From assembly GCA_965208105.1 (NCBI GenBank), contig OZ242318.1, positions 3,936,001 to 4,000,000 on the forward strand: 64,000 nucleotides of DNA, written 5' to 3'. Position 1 is the stretch's first letter. The number at the start of each line of letters is the position of its first letter. The notes beneath the pieces are model-generated. The model searched no databases. It saw only the letters and a program-made list of their open reading frames with translations, and was not told where the DNA came from. The translations under genes were made by a program, and so were the position numbers. Of the stretch, positions 9,697 through 64,000 are shown piece after piece. This DNA is from Candidatus Latescibacterota bacterium (GTDB lineage: Bacteria > Latescibacterota > UBA2968 > UBA8231).

Positions 9697-9863
9697 CTAG
9701 TGCCTGCTTGCGTAATTCCGCGTGAATTCGGCCGCCGCTGCATCCCGGCTCGCGGCGTTGCCCTCCCTCGCCGTACACTCCAGGTACGACTCGCTCAGGC
9801 GCCTTGCGAGCCGGGCGCTTCTGCGCCCTCGTTCGTACGCTTAATTACGCAAGCAGGCACTAG
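9697..9863 (-). mobile_element. 167-bp MITE-like element, TIR type A
   Basis: Perfect 21-bp TIR CTAGTGCCTGCTTGCGTAATT/AATTACGCAAGCAGGCACTAG; core nearly identical to the 42700 and 44385 copies, inverted. Confidence 0.88.
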
Positions 9864-22173: not shown

Positions 22174-25100
22174 CTAAAACCGAACTGCCCCCCTCACATC
22201 TATGCGATGTTCGGCGGATTGCTGGACTCGATTGCCTCGTCCGGCGGAAACGTTGAGGTCCAGCATCTCAAAGGCCGTACCAGTGAAGCGGCCCAGTTGG
22301 AATCCAAGGCGCATTAGCGACCGCTCCGAGCTGACAGGTCCGAACTCGGCAAACGGGGTCAGCACTCCATGCAAGGGCTCGACTCGCATACTGTAGCCGA
22401 CCAGGGCATCCATGGACCAAACGTCGGGGGAAAGCCCGAAACGGCCGGTCTGGAGCGCACCGTCGCGCCACAGGGCATGGGTACCGCGGTCGGCAGCACC
22501 CCAACGCGGGGCAAGCGACATCGACAGGCCAAGGCCGTCCCTGCCCGGTGACAGGCTGGCAATGATGCTGCCTCCACTCTCCTGGTAGGTTGAATTTAAC
22601 GCAAGCATGCGGCCCCTGGCCTCGATCTGGAATCGCGACCTCGGGCACTGGTAACGCAACCCACCAGCTACCTCCAGGCCCCCGCCGGTCTGGCCATCAC
22701 CGCCGTCGTAGCGGCCACCAAGTTCACCGAAGGGAGTTATCGTTGCGCAGCTGGCCAATACCACGGTGCGAGCGCCTTCCACACCAAGGCGGAAGCGTTG
22801 ACCCGCCACGGCTTGATCGTCGAGTACTTCCTCTCCTTCGGCAGTGGAGAGATTCACGATTCCCACGTCGCCCCGGAGAGACATGTCCAACCCACCCATG
22901 GATCCCAGGGATTGCCTCGCTCCCAGGAGCCCCAGGGACATGGAGAGATCGCTTTCCTCCGTGGTAGAAGTGACCCCTCGCTCGTTTTCGGCAGTGCCTA
23001 CCCCGACGCCACCCAGGGCCCAGATGTCCATTCCGGCACTAGGTGCCCAGCGCACATAGGGATATACACTTGTCAGAACCGTGGTCAACGTGCCGCCTCC
23101 AATTGCTCCATCTCCAGAGAAGGTGTAGTTGGCCTCACCCATACTGTAGGATACCGACACACCTGCCTGACCGGTTGCGGCCACGCGCTTGTCGGCTCCG
23201 AGATATACCGTCATCAAGGTCCCGTCGTGGCTGCCGTGATCCGGGGTACCTTCGAAGGCCTGGTAGTCGCCCAGGCCCCACAAGGTCCAGTTCGGCAGTC
23301 CTTGATCGGCATCGCTGGATCCTACCGGGACGGCGAAGGAGGTGTTCCGAATGGCCTGTTTCCAGGAAATTCCTCCTCCAAGGGTGCCCAATCCGCGAGG
23401 ATAGCGGAAATCGCCCTCCAGGCCTGTGACCTGGGAAGCCAACGGATCTCTATCGCTTCCACTCAGGAGGGAAAGCCCCGCCAGGGTTGCTTTATTGGAG
23501 CCCGAACTGGAGGCGAAGCGAGCACCGATTGCCGATGAAACGCTCGATAGAGTGCTCCGGCCAATCGCTGCCAACGCGTCGCCTACAATTGCCACCTCAG
23601 CCGGTTCGGTGACCACGGTCACGACGAAGGTTTGAGAAGCATCGGGGCCAATTGTGTTCATTGCAACCACTTCAATGGTAGATTCACCTTCTATTACGGC
23701 CGCCACGGTTACCTCAGACCCCGCGACGGAAACGGTGGCAACCCCGGGATTCGAGGAGGTTGCGCTATAGTTCAGGTCAAGGCCGCGGAAATTGTCCGAA
23801 ACGTCCTCGACCCCGTCAGCACCGCCGACGTACAGCATCATGACGGGGATTGGATCGACCCTGGTCGGCTCGTCGTCGTTGTCGGTCAGAGTAATGGTCA
23901 CTGACTCGACCGTAAAGCCCTCTGCGGACCCCTCGACCACGATGGTCTCATCGTACTCGGGAATGAGCTCCTCGGGCGGGGTCAGCGTCAGGGTCCCGCT
24001 GCTTTCAGTCGTACGGGCTCCAACCGTGATCGTTGGAATCGATGCGGCGTAGTCCGTGCCTTCTTCGGCAGTTCCCGACAAGGACAGCGATACTTGCGTA
24101 TCAGTCAGCAGGGCGGTGCTGCCATCGCCCAGAACGGCCGTCACTTCGAACGAGGTTTCCCCATCTCCTTCGTCAAAGCTGGGCACGTCCACGCTCAGAG
24201 TGATGGAGGTTGGCGCCACATCGTTGTCGGTCACGGTCAGCTCGACAGAAGCGATTTCGAACCCCTCGGCGCTGCCTTCGAGGACGATGATCTCGTCTCC
24301 CTCAGCCAGGTTGTCGTCCACCAGAGAAATGGGAATGGTTGCGCTGCCCGTCGTGCCCCTGGCGGCGATGGTCAGAGTGGCAGCTGTGGCGGCATTGTCT
24401 TCGCTTTCGGCCACCGAGAGGGCGACCTGGGTGTCGGTCAACAGGGCGGTGCTGCCGTCGCCCAGGACCGCCGACACCGTGGCCTCGCCGCCGGTCCCTT
24501 CGTCGAAGCTGGACACGTCCACGCTCAGAGAGATGGTGGTCGGCATCACGTCGTTGTCGGTTACGGTCAACTCGACGGAGGCGATACCATATCCCTCGGC
24601 GCTGCCTTCGAGGACGATGGTTTCGTCGCCCTCGACCAGGTTGTCGTCCACCAGGGAAATGGGAATGGTTGCGCTGCCCGTCGTGCCCCTGGCGGCGATG
24701 GTCAGAGTGGCAGCTGTGGCGGCATTGTCTTCGCTTTCGGCCACCGAGAGGGCGACCTGGATGTCGGTCAGCAGGGCGGTGCTGCCGTCGCCCAGGACCG
24801 CGGTCACCGTGGCCTCGCCGCCGGTCCCTTCGTCGAAGCTGGACACGTCCACGCTCAGAGAGATGGTGGTCGGCATCACGTCGTTGTCGGTCACGGTCAA
24901 CTCGACGGAGGCGATATCATATCCCTCGGCGCTGCCTTCGAGGACGATGGTTTCGTCGCCCTCGACCAGGTTGTCGTCCACCAGGGAAATGGGAATGGTT
25001 GCGCTGCCTGCCGTCTCCCTGGCGGGAATGGTCAGGGTGGCTTCGGCGGCGGCGTTGTCTTCGCTTTCGGTCACCGAGAGGGCGACCTGGGTGTCGGTCA

Positions 25101-27747
25101 GCAGGGCGGTGCTGCCGTCGCCCAAGACCGCGGTCACCGTGGCCTCGCCGCCGGTCCCTTCGTCGAAGCTGGACACGTCCACGCTCAGAGAGATGGTGGT
25201 CGGCATCACGTCGTTGTCGGTCACGGTCAACTCGACGGAGGCGATTTCAAACCCTTCGGCGCTGCCTTCGAGTGCGATGGTTTCGTCGCCCTCGACCAGG
25301 TTGTCGTCCACTAGAAAGAAGGGAAGGGTTGCGCTGCCTGTCGTCTCTGTGGCGGGAATGGTCAGGGTGGCTTCGGCGCCGGCATTGTCTTCACTTTCGG
25401 CCACCGAGAGGGCGACCTGGGTGTCGACCAACAGGGCGGCGCTGCCGTCGCCCAAGACCGCGGTCACCACGACCTGGCCTCCCGGACCTTCTTCAAAGCT
25501 GTTCGGGTCGAGGCTCAGAGAGATGGTGGTCGGCATCACGTCGTTGTCGGTTACCGTCAACTCGACGGAGGCGATTTCAAATCCACCTGCGCTGCCTTCG
25601 AGTGCGATGGCTTCGTCACCCTCGACCAGGTTGTCGTCCACCAGGGACAGGGGCAGGCTCACGCTGCCTGTCGTCTCCCTGGCGGGAATGGTCAGGGTGG
25701 CTTCGGCGCCGGCATTGTCTTCACTTTCGGCCACCGAGAGGGCGACCTGGGTGTCGACCAACAAGGCGGCGCTGCCGTCGCCCAAGACCGCGGTCACCGT
25801 CACCTCGCCGCCCGTTCCTTCATCGAAACTGGATGCGTCCACGCCCAGAGAGATGGTGGTCGGCATCACGTCGTTGTCGGTTACCGTCAACTCGACGGAG
25901 GCGATTTCAAATCCACCTGCGCTGCCTTCGAGTGCGATGGCTTCGTCACCCTCGACCAGGTTGTCGTCCACCAGGGACAGGGGCAGGCTCACGCTGCCTG
26001 TCGTCTCCCTGGCGGGAATGGTCAGGGTGGCTTCGGCGCCGGCATTGTCTTCACTTTCGGCCACCGAGAGGGCGACCTGGGTGTCGGTCAACAGGGCGGT
26101 GCTGCCGTCGCCCAAGACCGCGGTCACCGTCACCTCGCCGCCCCTTCCTTCATCAAAACTGGATGCGTCCACGCTCAGAGAGATGGTCGTCGGCATCACG
26201 TCGTTGTCGATTACCGTCAACTCGACGGAGGCGATTTCCAGACCATCTGCGTTGCCTTCGAGTGTGATGGTCTCGTCACCCTCGACCAGGTTGTCGTCCA
26301 CCAGGGATATGGGCAGGGTTGCGCTGCCTGTCGTCTCTGTGGCGGGAATGGTCAGAGTGGCAACTGTGGCTGCATTGTCTTCGCTTTCGGCCACCGAGAG
26401 GGCGACCTGGGTGTCGGTCAACAGGGCGGTGCTGCCGTCGCCCAAGACCGCGGTCACCGTCACCTCGCCGCCCCTTCCTTCATCGAAACTGGATGCGTCC
26501 ACGCTCAGGGTAACGGAAGTGGGCGCCACATCATTGTCGCTCAACCCGACCATGGCCGATTCGACGATGAAACCGGGGGAAACACCCGACACTTCGATCG
26601 TCTCTTCGCCTTCGGCCAAATTATCCTCGATCAAGGTTAAGGCTATGGTTCCCGACCCTTCTGCTTGCTCGGCGGGAATCGTAATGGTCAGCTCGGAGGC
26701 CTCGTAGTCGGGGCCGAATTCCACGTGAGTGCCGGACAGCGACACCACCACTTCCGTGTCCACCAGAAGGACAGTGGAGCCGTCACCCAGCAGGCCTGTC
26801 ACGTTGACCGAGACTCCTCCTTCCCCTTCCCCAACGTTGGAAGGATCGACTGAAAGGGAAATCGAAGTCGGGGTTATGTCGTTATCCGTCAAGGCAACCT
26901 CTGCGGTGGAAACCTCCAGATCCTGGGCGTCCACAGTGGCACCACCGGTGGCGGAGGATGAACCCACGATCACGATGGTCTCGGGATCATCCCCTTCTAC
27001 GATGTTGTCGTCGTTGATGTTCAGGGTCAGGATCGTCCTTCCCTCGGTTCCGCCGGCTGGAATGACAACTTCCTGATCACCCAACTCCCCAACGTAATCT
27101 CGGCCATCCACATTCTCCGCCGTACCAGACAAGGAGAGCTGAATCGGGGTGGCAAGGGACCACGACTTGCTCAAGGTCGCGGTTACGACCGAATTCACCA
27201 CACCATCATCCTCGGCTACACTGTTGGGGTCAACAGACAGGGTTACAGTGGGCAGAGTAAAGTCAATTTGAGGACTGGCCTCGGCGGGGATGCTCTCTTC
27301 GCCACTAATCGTAGAGATGGTAGTGACAGAAAAGGTATAAGTTGCACCCAGGGTGAGAGAGTTGTCCACGAAGGAGGTCTGGCCGGAGGGAACAGTACCT
27401 AATAGTGCAGGTTCGGAACCTCCTGAGGCTGAACGCCACACATTATACCCAGCCACATCGTTGAAATTGAGAAAGTTTCCCTCAGAGGTAAAATTGCTGC
27501 CGGCCGGGACACTGCGCAGTTGGTCATTCGGCGACAGGTTCCAGGAGATGGTGACACTCCTTCCGTCCGCGCTTAGGTCAGCCCGAACCCCGCTGATCGG
27601 CTCAAAGACTCGCTCAGCGCTACCCCCCGCTCCGGACCCATCCTCTGTGCTGCCCGTGAGCTGTGCTGCCAGGGGGCTTGAGCACAGGAAAACGCTCAGG
27701 CCCAGCAGAATGGAAATTGTGATTAGGCCTTCTTTACTTCTTGACAT
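22174..27747 (-). CDS. Giant acidic autotransporter adhesin: signal peptide, FN3-like domain, about 10 Calx-beta-like repeats, Ig-like domain, beta-barrel
   Basis: ATG at 27747 after GAGGAGG; DDNLVEGDET...TDND repeats; C-terminal barrel motifs (YPYVRW, GGGLEVAGGLRY) and terminal Phe. Confidence 0.88.
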   Translation of the reverse strand: MSRSKEGLITISILLGLSVFLCSSPLAAQLTGSTEDGSGAGGSAERVFEPISGVRADLSADGRSVTISWNLSPNDQLRSVPAGSNFTSEGNFLNFNDVAGYNVWRSASGGSEPALLGTVPSGQTSFVDNSLTLGATYTFSVTTISTISGEESIPAEASPQIDFTLPTVTLSVDPNSVAEDDGVVNSVVTATLSKSWSLATPIQLSLSGTAENVDGRDYVGELGDQEVVIPAGGTEGRTILTLNINDDNIVEGDDPETIVIVGSSSATGGATVDAQDLEVSTAEVALTDNDITPTSISLSVDPSNVGEGEGGVSVNVTGLLGDGSTVLLVDTEVVVSLSGTHVEFGPDYEASELTITIPAEQAEGSGTIALTLIEDNLAEGEETIEVSGVSPGFIVESAMVGLSDNDVAPTSVTLSVDASSFDEGRGGEVTVTAVLGDGSTALLTDTQVALSVAESEDNAATVATLTIPATETTGSATLPISLVDDNLVEGDETITLEGNADGLEIASVELTVIDNDVMPTTISLSVDASSFDEGRGGEVTVTAVLGDGSTALLTDTQVALSVAESEDNAGAEATLTIPARETTGSVSLPLSLVDDNLVEGDEAIALEGSAGGFEIASVELTVTDNDVMPTTISLGVDASSFDEGTGGEVTVTAVLGDGSAALLVDTQVALSVAESEDNAGAEATLTIPARETTGSVSLPLSLVDDNLVEGDEAIALEGSAGGFEIASVELTVTDNDVMPTTISLSLDPNSFEEGPGGQVVVTAVLGDGSAALLVDTQVALSVAESEDNAGAEATLTIPATETTGSATLPFFLVDDNLVEGDETIALEGSAEGFEIASVELTVTDNDVMPTTISLSVDVSSFDEGTGGEATVTAVLGDGSTALLTDTQVALSVTESEDNAAAEATLTIPARETAGSATIPISLVDDNLVEGDETIVLEGSAEGYDIASVELTVTDNDVMPTTISLSVDVSSFDEGTGGEATVTAVLGDGSTALLTDIQVALSVAESEDNAATAATLTIAARGTTGSATIPISLVDDNLVEGDETIVLEGSAEGYGIASVELTVTDNDVMPTTISLSVDVSSFDEGTGGEATVSAVLGDGSTALLTDTQVALSVAESEDNAATAATLTIAARGTTGSATIPISLVDDNLAEGDEIIVLEGSAEGFEIASVELTVTDNDVAPTSITLSVDVPSFDEGDGETSFEVTAVLGDGSTALLTDTQVSLSLSGTAEEGTDYAASIPTITVGARTTESSGTLTLTPPEELIPEYDETIVVEGSAEGFTVESVTITLTDNDDEPTRVDPIPVMMLYVGGADGVEDVSDNFRGLDLNYSATSSNPGVATVSVAGSEVTVAAVIEGESTIEVVAMNTIGPDASQTFVVTVVTEPAEVAIVGDALAAIGRSTLSSVSSAIGARFASSSGSNKATLAGLSLLSGSDRDPLASQVTGLEGDFRYPRGLGTLGGGISWKQAIRNTSFAVPVGSSDADQGLPNWTLWGLGDYQAFEGTPDHGSHDGTLMTVYLGADKRVAATGQAGVSVSYSMGEANYTFSGDGAIGGGTLTTVLTSVYPYVRWAPSAGMDIWALGGVGVGTAENERGVTSTTEESDLSMSLGLLGARQSLGSMGGLDMSLRGDVGIVNLSTAEGEEVLDDQAVAGQRFRLGVEGARTVVLASCATITPFGELGGRYDGGDGQTGGGLEVAGGLRYQCPRSRFQIEARGRMLALNSTYQESGGSIIASLSPGRDGLGLSMSLAPRWGAADRGTHALWRDGALQTGRFGLSPDVWSMDALVGYSMRVEPLHGVLTPFAEFGPVSSERSLMRLGFQLGRFTGTAFEMLDLNVSAGRGNRVQQSAEHRIDVRGAVRF
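24221..26540 (-). repeat. Seven near-identical 330-bp (110-aa) tandem repeats
   Basis: TC(G/A)TTGTCG recurs at 24221, 24551, 24881, 25211, 25541, 25871, 26201 and 26531. Confidence 0.95.
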
Positions 27748-27984
27748 TTTCGATATCCTCCTCAACGATTTTCCCGCAAATGTAGGAATGAAAATTTAGA
27801 GTTAGAATTTGATTTGGAATTGGAATTCTCAGATGCCCTTCGTCCTGTTTGTGAAATAATTACATAAAGTTATGCGCAGTTATACAAATTCACATTAAAC
27901 ATTATAAGCTACGAAAAACCGCTGAGTAGCGCAACGGATTATTATGGATCAACTTCCATTTAGTGGTCCAAATCGCCCTTCTCC

Positions 27985-28018
27985 CGGCATGGGATCTTGG
28001 ACGGCATGGGATCTTGGA
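27985..28018. repeat. Perfect 17-bp tandem duplication
   Basis: CGGCATGGGATCTTGGA twice. Confidence 0.9.
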
Positions 28019-28194
28019 TTCGGGACGGGTCCGGTTTGAGTCGCTCCTGTGGACGAGCCACAGCGATATGGCCTCTCCTGAGGTCCCCGGCAGGTGAAAT
28101 CGCCCCATCTCTCCACGGACGGCAAATGATGAAGCAGCCATGGTCCGGTTCCTTTCCACTGCAGCCCAGGGTCATCGAGAGTATGGAGAGGGCC

Positions 28195-28227
28195 CAGCAG
28201 CCCGTTGAAATAGCCCATCCGGGCCGC
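28195..28227 (-). mobile_element. Terminal relic of a type C 168-bp element, interrupted by IS630
   Basis: 29/33 identity with the reverse complement of 7395-7427. Confidence 0.75.
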
Positions 28228-28967
28228 TAGTGCGCTGTTAAAGAGTCGGCATTGAATTTTGTATTTTGGCGAGCTTGGCATCGTCCTGGTTTCGATTTCT
28301 CCATACGAGGTATTCCTGCATGTGCTGGCCGATGTCTCGATGGTCCCTTGGGTCGCTGTTCTTGATGACGAAGTAGTGGGCGGCCGTCATGTGGCATTCG
28401 AGACGGTTCATCCAGGAGGCGTTGGTAGCGATGAAGACGAGGGAGACTCGATGCTGCCGACACCATTGCCGAATCTTTTGGGTCGCGTGCGTCGACAAAT
28501 TGTCCAGAACGAGGTAGATGCGTTGGGCCTTGCGGTAGCGGTGCCGGATGGCCTTGAGGAAAGTGAGCACCTCCGAGGCGTGCTTCTTTCGCTTGTGATG
28601 CATCCACAGGACGTCCTCGTGGACGTTGTAGGCGCCGAAGAAATAGTGACCCCGGCGTGCCGGGTGTAGGTGGCTCGGTGCCGCACCGGGTGCTTCTGCG
28701 GCGCCCAGGAGGAGCCGGCATGGGGCTTGATCTGCACGGGTCCCATTTCGTCGAAGCAGACTACGACCGAGTCCTTCGGCGCACGCCGGTAGAGGCGGTC
28801 GATGCGTTTTTTTCTGAGGAGAAATCCGGATCCTTCGACTCTTTCCAGGTGCGGGTACGTTGGTAGGTGACCTTATGCCGGTCCAAGACCTTGGCGATGG
28901 TCACGTGCGAGACCTTGGGGATCATCTTGCGCCCGACCAGACAGTCGGTCATCTTGCGCAGCGACCA
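28227..28967 (-). pseudogene. IS630-family transposase remnant, 5'-truncated and split over three frames
   Basis: WSLRKM...TWKESKDPDF; CFDEMGP; LDNLSTH...ASWMNRLE; element end CTAGTG at 28227. Confidence 0.9.
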
Positions 28968-29059
28968 CTGATATGTATTGACGGTTGTCAACCCTCTCCG
29001 GGGTGGTCGTTTCGGGTGTTATCTTTGCATAGTTTGTTCGGGGACAGATGGGACGCTGT

Positions 29060-29200
29060 AGCGACGGTTGATCCGACTGATATTCGCGGGTTGGCTACCG
29101 CCTGTCCTGGGTGCGTCGCGGAGCGGCCTCAATCTAGAGTCGAGGGTCAGCCTGAAAAGGCGCCTCATAGTGTCTTCGAGGATTCTCCTGACCGGTCCCT
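29060..29200 (-). ncRNA. Putative bridge/seek RNA in the IS110 right end
   Basis: Two stem-internal-loop-stem modules identified by eye; one loop contains ATATCAG identical to the element terminus; boundaries approximate. Confidence 0.65.
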
Positions 29201-29262
29201 TCTGTCCCGTTTCGATTTACATGAGCAAAGGTCCTATGCCGGCTTCTGAGACGATGAGCTTA

Positions 29263-30402
29263 TCAGGCGGCGATCCGAGGTCTCCTGGCCACGAGGCGGC
29301 CGGGGCGTTTCTGCTCCCAGGCGATGGCCCAGATGAAACCCAAAAGCTCCCGCGCGATCGCGGTGCAGACTTTGTTTTTCGGCATCCCTCGCCCACTCAG
29401 CCGTCGATAGCGTCCACACAGGCGTTTCTGTGCCTTCCAGGCGATGGCCTGTATGGGGGGTGCGGTCTGTTCGGCGCGTCGTTGCAAGGCGGCCGTCTTG
29501 CGGGCGGGAAAGCGATAGCACCAGGCCGCTTCCACCAGCACGCGCCGCACGTGGGCGTTGCCCGCCTTGGTGATCGCCCCTCGCTTTTGGCGGGAGCCGC
29601 TGGAATGCTCGCTGGGGACCAGACCGACGAAGGCCATCAGTTGGCGCGGCGAGTCAAAGCGGGTGAGGTCCCCCAACTCGGCCAGGGTCGTAACCGCGGT
29701 GAGCGTGTCTACCCCGCGCAGCGCCCTCATAGCCCGCGTCTCCCCTTCCAAAGACCATCCCTCCAGCGCCTGCTGCAGGGCCTGGTCCAACCCCTGGATC
29801 CGACCTTGGGCTTCCTGTACCGCGTCCACGTATTCCTGAAAGACGATCTGCTGGGCCGGATGATCGAAGCGCTGGGTCTGCAGCCAGCGAAAGTGGGCTT
29901 GGGTCCAGCGACTGCGCCCGGAGTAGATCCGGCCGTGGCGCTGCAAGAAGCTGTTCAGCCGCTGGCGCACGCGGCGCTCGGCGTGCTTGAAGTCTTCCCG
30001 GCAGCGCTCCAGATCGCGCATCGCCTCCTGCGCTTGGTCGGGCACCCACACGGGGGTCAACTCGCCGTGTTGGAAAAGCCGCACCAGAGACACAGCATCG
30101 CGGCGGTCGGTCTTGATGCGGTCGCCCGGCCGACGCGGGATCAGCGAGGGCGCCACCACCGTGCAGGCGTGCCCTAGGGCTGTGAGCTGACGGTAGACGC
30201 CGTAGCCGCAGGGTCCGGCCTCGTAGCAAAACCGCAACGACGTCTCCGAGCCGGCCAGTTTGGCCGCCAGTTGGGACAACGCGGCGCCCGTAGAAGGTAT
30301 CGTTCCATACAGGTCCGGCCCTTTTCGGCCTTCACCGGCCAGGGCGACGGTGATCGAATCTTTATGTATGTCCAAGGCGACGAATTTCGTAGATTTACGC
30401 AT
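29263..30402 (-). CDS. IS110 DEDD recombinase/transposase
   Basis: ALDIHK, CYEAG, KTDRRD and GLVPSEHSSG; AGGAGG RBS; intact 379 aa. Confidence 0.96.
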   Translation of the reverse strand: MRKSTKFVALDIHKDSITVALAGEGRKGPDLYGTIPSTGAALSQLAAKLAGSETSLRFCYEAGPCGYGVYRQLTALGHACTVVAPSLIPRRPGDRIKTDRRDAVSLVRLFQHGELTPVWVPDQAQEAMRDLERCREDFKHAERRVRQRLNSFLQRHGRIYSGRSRWTQAHFRWLQTQRFDHPAQQIVFQEYVDAVQEAQGRIQGLDQALQQALEGWSLEGETRAMRALRGVDTLTAVTTLAELGDLTRFDSPRQLMAFVGLVPSEHSSGSRQKRGAITKAGNAHVRRVLVEAAWCYRFPARKTAALQRRAEQTAPPIQAIAWKAQKRLCGRYRRLSGRGMPKNKVCTAIARELLGFIWAIAWEQKRPGRLVARRPRIAA

Positions 30403-30516
30403 GGCCTCCTCCTTTTCGCTGGGGATAGGTCTTTGGGTGAACTCCGTTTTCCCAAAGATAACCCCCGAAAACCGAAATCGGAGGAGGTCTTTCATATCTC
30501 CGTCAATACATAAGGT

Positions 30517-31410
30517 CTAGCGCTCGATCTCATCGGTATGAGAGCTGATAATTCCATATGTCTCCGGGCGGCGGTCGCGATACATGAAATGCAGGCGGCG
30601 TGCATGGAGCAGGTGGTCTCTGTCAATGACCACGTTCAGAACCTCCTCGCGGTCATTGCTGCCCTCGGTCATCAGCTCACCCAGAGGGTCGAAAGCGATG
30701 CTGCGCCCTCCCATTAGAATGGGCATGTCCGGAGCTGGCACCCAGCCAATGCTGTTGGCAGCGAGGATGTAGGCAATATTTTCGAAGGCACGGGTGGCCA
30801 GAAGCTCCTTCCAGATAGTCTTTTTCGTATCCGAGATTCCAAACGGCGCCAGAATCGCCTCGGCTCCCGACAGTGCAAGACAACGGGCAGCCTCGGGGAA
30901 GTAGGCGTCATAGCAGAGGAGGATGCCTATCTTCCAGGCCCCGATCCGGAATACCGGATAGCGAGAGCCGGTGCGGAAGTAGATCGACTCGATTCCCAGG
31001 TCCGTTACTATCTCACCGTCGATCAGGATGTGCCTCTGGCCGCCAATATGGGTCTTGCGGTACTTGCCGACGATGTCCCCTCCGGGCCCGATCAGGATGG
31101 CCGTGTCGTAGAACAGATCGGTTCCGTCGCGCTCGAAGATGGTAGCCACGATATGGCACCGGTACTGTGCGGCTTTCGATCTCATGGTGGCTATGGCAGG
31201 ATCCTCAACGGTGGATGCGAGGTCGAAAAGGGCATAGTCGCGCGAGGCAGGGAAGAAGCCGGTGCTCCAGTACTCGGGCAGAAGGATCGCGTCGGAACCC
31301 TCCGCAGCCGCCAGGTCGACGAGGCGAACGGCCGTCTCGATGTTGCGTTCGACTTCTCCGACCGCGCTTTCCATCTGGATCAGCCCGACATTTAAATTTT
31401 CAGGAGCCAT
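30517..31410 (-). CDS. Carbon-nitrogen hydrolase (nitrilase superfamily)
   Basis: Catalytic triad LPEY, YRKTH, LCYD; RAFEN; RDRRPETY. Confidence 0.92.
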   Translation of the reverse strand: MAPENLNVGLIQMESAVGEVERNIETAVRLVDLAAAEGSDAILLPEYWSTGFFPASRDYALFDLASTVEDPAIATMRSKAAQYRCHIVATIFERDGTDLFYDTAILIGPGGDIVGKYRKTHIGGQRHILIDGEIVTDLGIESIYFRTGSRYPVFRIGAWKIGILLCYDAYFPEAARCLALSGAEAILAPFGISDTKKTIWKELLATRAFENIAYILAANSIGWVPAPDMPILMGGRSIAFDPLGELMTEGSNDREEVLNVVIDRDHLLHARRLHFMYRDRRPETYGIISSHTDEIER

Positions 31411-31520
31411 TGGTCCATACCCGGGGGTTCCAGGGGTGTTTCGGGTCCCGGCGTCGCCGTGCTGATGCGGACCCCGGAAGGGCGCAAATTAATCTTTTCA
31501 AGCTAACCCGCAGTTCATAT

Positions 31521-35699: not shown

Positions 35700-36806
35700 T
35701 CAGGCATCGCAGCTGGGCACGTCCACCCAGCGCCGCGTCCGCGCCGCGGTAAGGATGGCGTCTGCCACCGCCTGGGCCCGCATGCCGTAATAGAACGAGG
35801 GGACGCACTCCCTGCCCTTGAGAATGGCGCAGGTGAATTCCCAGGCCTGGTCCCAGCGGAAATTCTGCAGCGGATTCCCTTCCCCGGGATTGCGGGGTGA
35901 GCCGGGCAGCCTTAGAAATTTCTCGGGAACCTTGCGGGAGCGGTATGGCTCCCCTCTGCGAGCGAAGAGGATCCGGTCAGCGGGGTCCAACTGGTATGCA
36001 GCAGAGGCTGCGCTGCCGTTGAGCTCGGCTACATCGTGATCGCCGCCCGGTCCCCGTCCCTTGGTCAGCTTGCCCATCTCGAAGACTCCGGTGGCCCCGC
36101 TCCCGAACTCGGCGATCCATGCCACCCAATCCTCCAGGTCCTGGGGAGGACAGGGCTCGCCCGCCTCGGTTCGATCACGTGCCAGCACCTGGCGGGTGGC
36201 GGCGCACACCGACGTGACGGGTCCAAGCAGGTCTTCGGCGAAGTCAATGCGATGGATGCCCATATCTCCCAACTCACCTGAGCCTGCCCGGTCCTTGTAC
36301 TGGCGCCAGCCGATTGAATATTCCCCCCAGTCCTGCAGCCGTTGAAAGCGTGCGTGGCGGATTTCCCCCAATTCCCCCTGCCGCACGAGGTGGCGCAGGT
36401 AGGCCATTCCGGGCGCAAAACGGTAGGTGAAGGCCGTCATGTGCCGCAGGCCGGACTCTTTGGCTGCCCGGTAGATTTCCACCGTCTCGCCGTAGTCCAT
36501 ACCCAGGGGTTTCTCGCACAGCACGTGGCAGCCGGCCTCCAGGGCATTCAGAATGAAACTCCGGTGGAGCACGTTGGGGACGGCGATGACCACGGCGTCG
36601 GGTTCGACCTCGCGCAGGAACCGGTCGAAATCACTGCACCCCACCGCTACGCCCCACTCCTCCTGGCGGCGGGCAAGCAGCTTCGCGTCCACCTCGCAAA
36701 GGCCGGCGATTTCCACCTGCGGAATCCGGCGGAAGCCGGGGTAGTGCACCGCGGCGCAGACTCCACCGAGACCGACCAGGCCAATCCGCAACTTTTCTTC
36801 AGCCAT
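35700..36806 (-). CDS. Gfo/Idh/MocA oxidoreductase
   Basis: GLVGLG, HVLCEKP, GELGDMGIH. Confidence 0.9.
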   Translation of the reverse strand: MAEEKLRIGLVGLGGVCAAVHYPGFRRIPQVEIAGLCEVDAKLLARRQEEWGVAVGCSDFDRFLREVEPDAVVIAVPNVLHRSFILNALEAGCHVLCEKPLGMDYGETVEIYRAAKESGLRHMTAFTYRFAPGMAYLRHLVRQGELGEIRHARFQRLQDWGEYSIGWRQYKDRAGSGELGDMGIHRIDFAEDLLGPVTSVCAATRQVLARDRTEAGEPCPPQDLEDWVAWIAEFGSGATGVFEMGKLTKGRGPGGDHDVAELNGSAASAAYQLDPADRILFARRGEPYRSRKVPEKFLRLPGSPRNPGEGNPLQNFRWDQAWEFTCAILKGRECVPSFYYGMRAQAVADAILTAARTRRWVDVPSCDA

Positions 36807-36825
36807 CAGCTCTCGACCTTGAAAG

Positions 36826-36958
36826 GGGCCGCCGAGGCGCCCGGCTCACAAGGCGCCTGAGCGAGTCGTACCAGTGGTGTACGGCGAGTGAAGGCAACGC
36901 CGTGAGCCGGGATGGATCGGCGGAATAATGGCGACATATTTCTGCGACGGGACACTAA
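36826..36958 (+). mobile_element. Left-truncated copy of the 168-bp element, TIR type B
   Basis: Nearly identical to 42735-42867; ends GGGACACTAA overlapping the cupin TAG stop. Confidence 0.88.
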
Positions 36959-37326
36959 CGCCAGACCGTTTGGTCAGAGGTTTCCACATACTGGTTGTAG
37001 CGCTGGAGGTAATCCTCGCGAATCGGGGAAAAGATGTCCAGGACTCGTGCAGGCCCCTCCACTACCTCCCCTCCGTGCACCACATTCGACGGCACCATGA
37101 AGGCGTCGCCGGGCTCCATGAGCATCTCCTCCTCTCCGACCCTGAATTTCAGCTTGCCCTCCAGCATCAGTCCGGCCTGCTCGTGGGGGTGGCTGTGGTC
37201 GGGCACTACTCCACCCTGCTCCAGAACCAGGAAGGAGAGCATGAGGCGCTCTCCGGCGATGACGCCGCTGAGGGCACCCGGGAACAATTCCATTTTTGGC
37301 AGATCTTCAGAACGGATAAACGGCAT
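36955..37326 (-). CDS. Cupin domain protein
   Basis: PDHSHPHEQ...VPSNVVHG...DIFSPIREDY. Confidence 0.9.
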   Translation of the reverse strand: MPFIRSEDLPKMELFPGALSGVIAGERLMLSFLVLEQGGVVPDHSHPHEQAGLMLEGKLKFRVGEEEMLMEPGDAFMVPSNVVHGGEVVEGPARVLDIFSPIREDYLQRYNQYVETSDQTVWR

Positions 37327-42699: not shown

Positions 42700-42867
42700 C
42701 TAGTGTCCCGTCGCAGAGATAGGTTGACGAAATTGGGCCGCCGAGGCGCCAGGCTCACAAGGCGCCTGAGCGAGTCGTACCAATGGTGTACGGCGAGTGA
42801 AGGCAACGCCGTGAGCCGGGATGGATCGGCGGAATAATGGCGACATATTTCTGCGACGGGATACTAG
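42700..42867 (+). mobile_element. 168-bp MITE-like element, TIR type B
   Basis: CTAGTGTCCCGTCGCAGA...TCTGCGACGGGATACTAG. Confidence 0.92.
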
Positions 42868-44384: not shown

Positions 44385-44552
44385 CTAGTGTCCCGTCGCG
44401 GAGCTAGGTTGACCAAATTGGGCCGCTGAGGCGCCCGGCTCGCAAGGCGCCTGAGCGAGTCGTCCCGGTGGTGTACGGCGAGTGAAGGCAACGCCCTGAG
44501 CCGGGATGGATCTGCGGAAAGATGGCGACAAATTTCTGCGACGGGACCCTAG
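44385..44552 (+). mobile_element. 168-bp MITE-like element, TIR type B
   Basis: CTAGTGTCCCGTCGC...GCGACGGGACCCTAG; the right CTAG contains the TAG stop of 44549-45415. Confidence 0.92.
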
Positions 44553-63561: not shown

Positions 63562-63610
63562 GGCCGGTTTCCATCTGTTCCGGGTGCGTCGTGGAGCGGC
63601 CTCGGTCTAG
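63562..63610 (-). mobile_element. Relic of an IS110 right-end (bridge-RNA) sequence
   Basis: 38/49 ungapped identity to 29089-29137. Confidence 0.7.
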
Positions 63611-64000
63611 ACCTTATGTATTGACGGAGATATGAAAGACCTCCTCCGACTCGGTTGTCGGGGGTTATCTTTGGGAAAACGGAGTTCACCCAAAGACCTA
63701 TCCCCAGCGAGAAGGAGGAGGCCATGCGTAAATCTACGAAATTCGTCGCCTTGGACATACATAAAGATTCGATCACCGTCGCCCTGGCCGGTGAAGGCCG
63801 AAAAGGGCCAGACCTGTATGGAACGATACCGTCTACGGGCGCCGCGTTGTCCAAGCTGGCGGGCCAACTGGCCCGTGGTGGGACCTCGTTGCGGTTTTGC
63901 TACGAGGCCGGACCCTGCGGCTACGGCGTCTACCGTCAGCTCACAGCCCTGGGGCACGCCTGCACGGTGGTGGCGCCCTCGCTGATCCCGCGTCGGCCGG
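63607..64000 (+). mobile_element. Second IS110 copy (left end and transposase 5' part), truncated by window edge
   Basis: Left end nearly identical to the reverse complement of 30403-30520. Confidence 0.93.
63724..64000 (+). CDS. IS110 transposase, partial
   Basis: MRKSTKFVALDIHKDSITVA...CYEAGPCG. Confidence 0.93.
   Translation, partial: MRKSTKFVALDIHKDSITVALAGEGRKGPDLYGTIPSTGAALSKLAGQLARGGTSLRFCYEAGPCGYGVYRQLTALGHACTVVAPSLIPRRP

Follow-up and report, generated by a model that had tools for sequence, protein, structure and literature searches.

An IS1111-type insertion sequence of a Candidatus Latescibacterota genome very probably encodes a guide RNA that addresses the ends of a miniature transposable element

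What is encoded by the long noncoding stretch downstream of an IS110-family transposase gene in the genome of a Candidatus Latescibacterota bacterium, and why are most copies of the insertion sequence (IS) that carries it found at the ends of another transposable element? The stretch in question (positions 28968–29262) lies in a window of 64,000 nucleotides, by which we mean the whole of the DNA analysed (contig OZ242318.1, positions 3,936,001 to 4,000,000); the genome is one 4.85-Mb contig, whose coordinates are given below with the prefix C1. Our analysis indicates that this 297-nt region very probably encodes the bridge RNA, or seekRNA, of an IS1111-type element of the IS110 family, with loops that address the junction of a MITE (miniature inverted-repeat transposable element), so that the IS collects at MITE ends. 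The reading is carried by the anatomy of the element, the conservation of the RNA fold, the covariation of the RNA loops with flanking DNA and the sites of insertion.

The element is an IS110-family IS with IS1111-type anatomy, occupies window positions 28970–30518 on the minus strand and measures 1549 bp by the IS1111 convention. Its parts are as follows.

28970–30518, minus strand: insertion sequence proper, AGACCTT-subterminal repeat ... subterminal repeat-ATC, delimited from 12 genomic copies and their junctions
30512–30518, minus strand: left terminal extension AGACCTT, 7 bp, whose first two bases are the AG core
30500–30511, minus strand: left subterminal inverted repeat ATGTATTGACGG, conserved as ATG(T/G)ATTGAC... 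in relatives
29263–30402, minus strand: DEDD transposase, 379 aa from M32
28973–28984, minus strand: right subterminal inverted repeat CCGTCAATACAT, delimited from the copy junctions
28968–28972, minus strand: right extension ATC, 3 bp (28972–28970), then a copy of the AG core (28969–28968)

Both subterminal inverted repeats are 12 bp long, and noncoding DNA amounts to 297 nt downstream of the transposase gene against 117 nt upstream. Both junctions, like the empty target CTAGTGTC, contain the AG dinucleotide, with no other target duplication, as the IS110-family criterion has it. Identity among copies in BLAST comparisons spans 28966–30520, because CT and the target AGTG are common to the copies. 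Directly upstream of the studied region lies a 410-codon open reading frame (ORF; 29263–30495, minus strand), for which the window copy has an in-frame ATG at 30495. As the frame is open only from the codon equivalent to M32 in 7 of the 12 copies, and homologues align with the transposase from about residue 25–38, the protein is probably 379 aa long; an ORF of at least 379 aa is kept in 10 of the 12 copies. The domains found with Pfam (PF01548, E = 4e-13; PF02371, E = 2e-22), N-terminal DEDD/RuvC-like plus C-terminal, are arranged as in the IS110 family, and the NCBIfam model NF033542, 'IS110 family RNA-guided transposase', is matched with 262.6 bits (cut-off 140). The translation contains GLVPSEHSSG, which agrees with the C-terminal motif GL-P----S(t)G of the IS1111 group; the same source gives for this family subterminal repeats of 11–13 bp, a left extension of 7 (or 6) bp with a right one of 3 bp, and a long noncoding region downstream (PMC11187229). 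Judged by the anatomy of its repeats, extensions, noncoding region and motif, the element is probably a member of the IS1111 group.

The genome holds 12 copies of the IS, 95–100% identical, eleven of them 1554–1556 bp long and one with an internal deletion. In transposase orientation every copy reads flank-CTAG|ACCTT-ATGTATTGACGG ... CCGTCAATACAT-ATCAG|TG-flank. Ten of the 12 occupy a MITE end, exactly at the outer junction CTA|GTGTCCCG; they read flank-CTAG|IS|TGTCCCGTCGCAG, and their right flank begins TCCCGTCGCAGA(A/G)ATA..., which is the start of the MITE. One further copy lies at a non-MITE site, CTAGTGTT (C1:2089780), and the remaining one is the window copy at 28970–30518, to which we return below. 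A second copy begins in the window and is cut by its edge:

63607–64000, plus strand: insertion-sequence copy (C1:3999607–4001160), whose right end abuts a MITE end beyond the window

The MITE is 162 bp long, TA-flanked and provided with two distinguishable ends. A census with the two end sequences, allowing up to 8 mismatches in 40, returned 195 MITE ends genome-wide (about 98 elements of 162 bp), 10 of them occupied (type A seven, type B three). Unoccupied ends are preceded by C in 150 of 185 cases, by T in 162 and by A in 160; the MITE is therefore TA-flanked inside CTAG, C-TA|GTGTCCCG...|TA-G, with ends CTA|GTGTCCC, or GGGACACTAG when the opposite strand is read. A search for a full-length element with the inverted repeats of the MITE (14-nt repeat start, up to 2 mismatches) found none in this genome: 81 pairs of matches are 160–169 bp apart, and only two pairs lie far apart, both apparently accidental. 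MITE sequences in the window, the first three recorded with no strand assigned, are these.

42703–42864: unoccupied 162-bp MITE, with a perfect CTAGTGTC at its end at 42703
44388–44549: second unoccupied MITE, with a perfect CTAGTGTC at its end at 44388
36790–36961: third MITE copy, whose end at 36955 reads TTAGTGTC
9732–9834: further MITE-family stretch

In the occupied sites the repeat is on the right flank of the IS (...ATATCAG|TGTCCCGTCGCAG), and the left flank is the unique DNA ending in CTA that borders the repeat. The element sits between that CTA, which stays with the unique DNA, and the first G of the repeat, with the complete MITE to its right; the target is therefore nnnCT-AG-TGTCCCG, with the crossover within AG. 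The first-pass annotation, made from the letters of the window only, had proposed that the guides of this region match the termini of a 168-bp repeat. These termini correspond to the 162-bp MITE plus CTA and TAG on either side, and the ten copies are found exactly there; the comparison of insertion flanks that it had put forward as a check yields a site related to the loops. It had also cautioned that the left flanks match the predicted target only at CTAG. This is true of the left flanks, and has no force as an objection, the repeat being on the right: only CTAG was matched because left flanks had been compared, and only CTAG there belongs to the target. An orthologous empty site was not obtained among 20 relatives searched with the 600 bp to the left of one copy (C1:183438–184037), bases 153–600 of which belong to a multicopy gene family and the first 152 of which had no match in these relatives.

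Within the noncoding region, the RNA core is about 141 nt long and contains two internal loops. The elements of the modelled RNA, all on the minus strand, are listed from the 5′ to the 3′ side of each module.

29056–29196: bridge/seek RNA core, with a closing stem GGAG/CUCC followed by the target-binding and, after it, the donor-binding module; 131.6 bits with covariance model R1
29181–29176 with 29132–29127: target module outer stem, CCUCGA with UUGAGG
29167–29175: target loop 5′ strand AGACACUAU, complement of top-strand TAGTGTC (T, core AG, right flank TGTC) over 7 bp
29166–29163 with 29145–29142: target module inner stem, GAGG with CCUC
29133–29141: target loop 3′ strand GACUCUAGA, which has the sense of left flank and core as read on the top strand (..YCT-AG)
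29118–29114 with 29066–29062: donor module outer stem, CGACG with CGUCG
29102–29113: donor loop 5′ strand CACCCAGGACAG, holding AGGAC (29108–29104)
29101–29098 with 29089–29086: donor module inner stem, GCGG with CCGC
29067–29085: donor loop 3′ strand, holding AUAUCAG (29083–29077), which equals right end plus core

The stems, the 9x9 loop strands and the second module that had been recognised at first pass are all present, and AUAUCAG is indeed identical to the right terminus of the element, which reads ...CAATACATATCAG.

These loops suggest how the target would be chosen. The 5′ strand of the target loop, AGACACUAU, would pair with the top strand T-AG-TGTC, and the 3′ strand, GACUCUAGA, with the bottom strand over left flank and core (Y-CT-AG), so that strand exchange would take place within the shared AG. 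The donor loop would hold the joined ends of the excised circle, AUAUCAG reading right end plus core and AGGAC reading the core G plus the start of the left end; the predicted circle junction is ...CAATACATATC-AG-ACCTTATGTATTG (ATATC-AG-ACCTT). We infer here that the RNA is made and bound by the transposase, that the intermediate is circular and that strand exchange follows this order. The predicted address is CTAG|TGTC, or in longer form NNYCTAGTGTCCCG. In this genome CTAG|TGTC is mostly the MITE junction, that is, the TA flank followed by the first bases of the inverted repeat, and the IS would therefore collect at MITE ends. The target predicted at first pass, GACAC-TA-GAGTC, holds in the half that reads the repeat end, and fails in its GAGTC half, where real flanks match the loop only at CTAG and at a pyrimidine in position −3.

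The strand AGACACUAU is identical in all 12 copies, and GACUCUAGA, which reads CTAG and about two bases leftward, occurs in three variants among them. Guide position −3 is C in 3 copies, with a C in the flank of all 3, and U in 9 copies, with flank T in 4, C in 4 and G in 1, the latter being the window copy. The direction fits (p = 0.16), and the agreement between this guide polymorphism and the flank base within the genome is only suggestive. Of the occupied MITE sites, 10 of 10 have a pyrimidine at −3, whereas only 37 of 70 do so among perfect empty ends (p = 0.003, one-sided Fisher test); this bias fits the U or C of the guide, in the U case if U.G wobble is tolerated, as it presumably is. 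In RNA-library contigs from close relatives in other samples (X15–X17), the second guide strand (window 29131–29139) differs at 29138 and 29139, GAAACUAGA, and the variation is concentrated in the guide.

Conservation of the fold was evaluated over five helices (GGAG/CUCC, CCUCG/CGAGG, GAGG/CCUC, CGACG/CGUCG and GCGG/CCGC), which comprise 23 pairs or, in 34 aligned sequences, 780 cells. Pairing is found in 95.6% of the cells, against 34–47% when the partners are slid, and compensatory changes occur at 12 of the 23 pairs (52 cells); none of 500 shuffles reached the observed values. The central part of the downstream region, about 140 nt, can be aligned across phyla, with a constant scaffold and four variable stretches. 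In minimum free energy folds of 311-nt and 141-nt stretches, both stems of the first module come out, together with the outer one of the second. The 34-sequence alignment served to build covariance model R1, which matches 37 of 43 held-out homologue loci, every time downstream of the transposase gene and on its strand. The six misses are L028, L069, L085, L097, L101 and L107, of which at least L028, L069, L085, L101 and L107 are cut short. In the genome of the window the model detects all 12 copies and one remnant (C1:3931310–3931420). This remnant is part of a solo, diverged right-end fragment (C1:3931310–3931523) about 4.5 kb before the start of the window, 88% alike over 178 bp and scoring 61.5 bits on R1, with a 51-nt insertion in the hairpin of the target loop and different loop letters.

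If the loops are guides, they should change with the DNA around each element. A scan of one genome per species yielded 80 loci that encode relatives, 48–78% identical and spread over at least a dozen phyla-level labels. Their ends are conserved, the left one as (C/T)TAG|ACAT(C/A/T) and the right one as ATC|AG, and 42 of the 78 relatives with a complete gene end have the same kind of subterminal repeat (an ATG...-type pair). Between relatives the loop sequences vary with the flanks and the stems stay fixed. For the target-loop 5′ strand, 36 distinct guide–flank pairs were compared (35 relatives plus this element). The longest stretch shared between its reverse complement and the element's own right flank, core included, averages 6.36 nt, against 3.08 nt in mismatched pairs, and reaches at least 7 nt in 19 of the 36 elements, against 0.24% of mismatched guide–flank pairs. 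The model also aligned 32 held-out loci, and in 23 of them it is at the ...ATC|AG junction that the 5′ strand is matched best over the 420 nt downstream. These 23 represent about 15 distinct guide sequences, eight of the loci being copies of one Bryobacterales element. For the target-loop 3′ strand, 38 pairs were compared with the left flank. Agreement at position −1 is 97% (permuted 77%), at −2 84% (40%), at −3 63% (27%) and at −4 47% (23%), with a permutation p of at most 0.0015 at each of these positions and no signal past −4. In 29 of 41 relatives the donor-loop 3′ strand repeats all 7 positions of the element's own right end, and in the other 12 it repeats 6 of the 7; it varies with the end (ACCAG; CAGAG opposite GAGAG). 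Guide–target covariation among homologues, which the first-pass annotation had named as a way to check its proposal, is therefore present, and together with the transposase domains, the match to NF033542 and the conserved fold it bears out the view that the region is the bridge-RNA module of an IS110 element.

Close relatives add further cases. A sister genome of the same genus (G001) contains an 85%-identical copy with first guide GCGCACUAU and right flank TGTGCCGTCCCG (TGTGCC), where a G-to-C change in the guide stands opposite a C-to-G change in the flank, along with one G.T wobble; its second guide strand has a 7-nt deletion. The same genome has a decayed copy with the guides of the window element at a poorly matching site, and a 107-nt solo right end that abuts a MITE end. 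In a metatranscriptome contig from another sample, a MITE end is joined to the right end at 28966. A subgroup of relatives (L072, L074, L077–L080, L083, L086, L093, L098, L099 and L105) has the right junction ATCAA instead of ATCAG; AUAUCAG is usually kept in the donor loop, and the target loop reads ..UUAACG... Their junctions are TAG on the left and CAA on the right, as if donor and target cores differed by one base.

Is the preference for transposon ends confined to this genome? In 9 of 55 distinct right flanks of the relatives, the first 16 bases recur in inverted orientation (at most 3 mismatches) 93–1563 bp further on, against 5 of 368 control 16-mers (p = 7e-6); with two Bryobacterales flanks counted once, 8 flanks remain (p = 3e-5). 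The inverted copy is followed by TA in all 9. GACACUA guides with TGTC flanks also occur in relatives from Burkholderiaceae and a Pseudomonadales genome. These patterns in the flanks suggest a clade-wide habit of landing at the outer junction of TA-flanked inverted-repeat elements. In five different taxa (L029, L035, L036, L053 and L100) the right flank is nearly the same, GAGCCTGTCGGACTTAG, and so is the guide; the inverted partner of this flank lies 1563 bp away in L036 and 161 bp away in L035, which suggests that a widespread transposon family is accompanied by an insertion sequence that parasitises it.

Several results weigh against the proposal that the region encodes a guide RNA addressed to MITE ends. 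The folding energy of the 311-nt and 141-nt single-sequence folds is no better than that of shuffled sequences (z = −1.24 and +0.21), and a single sequence therefore gives no statistical support. No Rfam 15 family was found over 27500–31500 at E up to 10, where only chance-level matches appeared. Coverage of 28900–30600 by RNA libraries (four metatranscriptome runs) consists of assembled contigs of 90–99%-alike relatives; as contigs have no starts, ends or strand and the libraries may contain DNA, it is silent on a discrete small RNA. A scan of 28900–30600 showed no sigma-70-like promoter. In the loops, positions −4 and beyond of GACUCUAGA (GAC..) are not matched by real flanks in this genome. 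AGGAC, described at first pass as close to the complement of the left end, does pair with G-A-C-C-T there, at 4 of 5 positions, with an A.A mismatch beside the core. Across relatives, the donor-loop 5′ strand covaries weakly, pairing only with G-A-C(-C) of the left end. Besides, the 70 MITE-end sites and 17 other sites with a perfect CTAGTGTC are empty, so that either activity is low or further constraints apply. Finally, the copy in the window is atypical, with G at left −3 and, on the right, TGGTC inside an IS630-type gene.

With regard to the donor-loop 5′ strand, relatives carry GGUC opposite GACC; GGUC goes with ACC ends and also with some ACA ends. The relative L102, which has the same left end as our element, has AGGUC, and L035 shares the GAC variant. 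The terminator scan of 28900–30600 gave two terminator-like sites, both on the wrong strand and at chance level. A promoter formed at the circle junction, from a −35 TTGACA next to the right repeat and a −10 from the left end, was dropped as a candidate, the element having no convincing −10 box. A TTGAC-N2-4-GTCAA palindrome is conserved at 28985–29000, overlapping the right subterminal repeat, and at equivalent sites in relatives, most of which have the word TTGACA; an outward −35 box and a binding site for a protein are possible roles.

The window copy itself does not lie at a repeat end:

28227–28965, minus strand: right flank of the window copy, a truncated and frameshifted IS630-type transposase gene with no repeat end

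The flank begins GTCGCTGCGCAAG... and is internal sequence of this gene, nine other copies of which read through the junction (...cttcaacCAGTGGTCGC...); an intact copy of the gene carries HTH_32 and DDE_3. On its left the copy is bordered by a carbon-nitrogen hydrolase gene, at the stop codon. From their sequences, the two flanks do not belong together and are rearranged. Either an off-target event at cCAGTGgtc was followed by loss of the other side, or a deletion extended from a proper site to this half-matching word; the reciprocal product is not present in the genome.

Taking these points into account, three other explanations have to be weighed. The one that survives best concedes that the guide RNA is real and holds that it reads only a short word, (Y)CTAGTGTC, of which MITE ends merely hold most copies. 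Such a reading agrees with the guide–target pairing, which covers only about 8–9 bp, with the location of 70 of the 87 unoccupied CTAGTGTC words at MITE ends, and with the copy at the non-MITE site C1:2089780; occupancy, at 10 of 80 for MITE sites and 0 of 17 for perfect sites elsewhere, differs too little to separate the readings. It accounts less well for the relatives in other phyla found at TA-flanked inverted-repeat ends, whose excess over control sequences suggests selection, and for the variant of G001, whose changed guide sits at the end of a variant repeat-like sequence. We consider it rather unlikely, and still the only one of the three to keep a real share of the probability.

According to a second explanation, the conserved structure is a protein-binding or transcript-stabilising element, the protein picks the target and the matches between loops and flanks are coincidental. 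The folding energies and the silence of the RNA contigs leave room for it, and by our own estimate a chance 7-mer match in 297 nt is expected about once per two tries. It is, however, hard to reconcile with fixed stems whose loops vary in step with the flanks, in sets of about 36 and about 15 independent elements, or with the rarity of 7-nt stretches in mismatched pairs; in addition, RNA guiding has been shown experimentally in related families, as reported in PMC11208160 and PMC11187229. We regard coincidence on this scale as highly improbable.

The reverse order of events, in which a MITE inserting at the TA of a CTAG landed beside an IS end, is scarcely credible: the MITE does use CTAG sites, and one lies in the CTAG of a remnant guide region (window 63575–63611 and beyond), but at the 10 junctions the MITE is without its own TA on the side facing the IS (...ATATCA|GTGTCCC), the CTA that it lacks borders unique DNA at the opposite end of the IS, so that it is the element that lies between CTA and MITE, and both MITE ends are used, as expected if the target is the shared inverted repeat.

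A guide RNA addressed to MITE ends is thus the reading that we prefer, and it can be set beside known systems. The mechanism is that of the bridge RNA or seekRNA as described in 2024, and nothing here alters it. With the IS1111 seekRNA elements ISEc11, ISKpn4 and ISPa11 (Siddiquee et al., 2024; PMC11187229), our element shares the size class of the subterminal repeats, the 7/3 extensions and the downstream noncoding region. As in those seekRNAs, the segment complementary to the top strand lies 5′ of that complementary to the bottom strand, and the two target matches overlap at the crossover (PMC11187229). Differences from those elements are the length of the transposase, 379 aa against 330–350 aa in the IS1111 family, and the RNA, which is modelled here as about 141 nt with target and donor loops and is known from sequence only (PMC11187229).

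The bridge RNA of IS621, of the IS110 group (Durrant et al., 2024; PMC11208160; structures 8WT6 and others), also has target and donor internal loops, each reading both strands over a common core of 2 nt (here AG, or CT if the other strand is read), and a donor loop that recognises the element's own joined ends, as is predicted here. In contrast, the RNA of IS621 is located upstream of the gene, in the left end, whereas here it is downstream; and in IS621 it is through its 5′ strand that each loop pairs with the bottom strand, an order reversed in our element (PMC11208160). Matches of the transposase to solved structures cover the C-terminal domain only (IS621 8WT6, E = 1e-5; ISCro4 9T56, E = 3e-9). 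Identity of the protein is about 26% with IS4321/IS5075 (57% of the query covered) and about 27% with the IS110-like IS5708, that is, no closer to the IS1111 type. IS4321/IS5075, which are IS1111-type, were reportedly described by Partridge and Hall in 2003 as having a fixed target, the terminal inverted repeat of another transposon. There the host is a Tn3-family transposon; here it is a 162-bp TA-flanked MITE, with the crossover at the junction between the flanking TA and the first base of the repeat.

ISPpu9/ISPpu10 and ISPa11 are likewise IS110-family elements that collect in a multicopy intergenic repeat and leave extra solo copies of the small-RNA region in the genome, as the one remnant does here; their targets are repetitive extragenic palindromic (REP) hairpins, and here the target is a transposon end (PMC12288879; bioRxiv 10.64898/2026.03.19.712850). 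In the literature we found no paper on IS110 or IS1111 elements aimed at IS630-type MITE ends; the search did not extend to the supplementary target tables of PMC11208160 and PMC11187229, which may hold cases.

Other features of the window were recorded as well. Around the second IS copy three layers are nested: an older, 85%-alike guide-region fragment (63575–63611; C1:4001325–4001432) is split by a MITE, which landed in the CTAG of the second guide strand of the old fragment, and the full IS copy came later, at the end of that MITE. The IS630-type element beside the window copy (HTH_32 plus DDE_3, two ORFs) has at least 10 copies, with an intact example in L023 (838–1898). Its own end near 28225 in the window reads CTAGTGCGCTGTT, a 6/8 match to the target of the IS, and none of such ends is occupied. 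Further along, an ORF of 1863 codons (22174–27765, minus strand) contains seven 330-bp tandem repeats, 81–92% alike (24167–26446). There is an apparent signal-peptide-like N-terminus near 27700, and the product is probably a large surface protein of repetitive sequence.

At the level of the clade, we put forward tentatively, as an idea that leans to the doubtful side, that these elements are specialised as parasites of other transposons, with one strand of the target loop nearly hard-wired to (C/T)TAG, the other reprogrammed for each host, and a within-genome variation at −3 (U or C) that tracks the flank base. (C/T)TAG would then be the footprint of TA-duplicating IS630/Tc1-like elements inserting in CTAG, the reprogrammed strand would read the first 5–7 bases of the inverted repeat of the resident element, and insertion would sever that element from its flanking TA.

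The locus offers a natural guide–target pair with 10 filled and 70 perfect empty sites in one genome, from which target rules can be read as nature has left them, for instance the tolerance of a U.G wobble at −3 or of an A.A mismatch in the donor loop; the guide polymorphism inside one genome is a useful detail in this respect. The roughly 50 distinct guide–target pairs on one conserved 141-nt scaffold could help the engineering of IS1111-type recombinases. For the biology of the host, one transposon here uses the ends of another as its landing pad, which probably disables the end that is hit and spares host genes.

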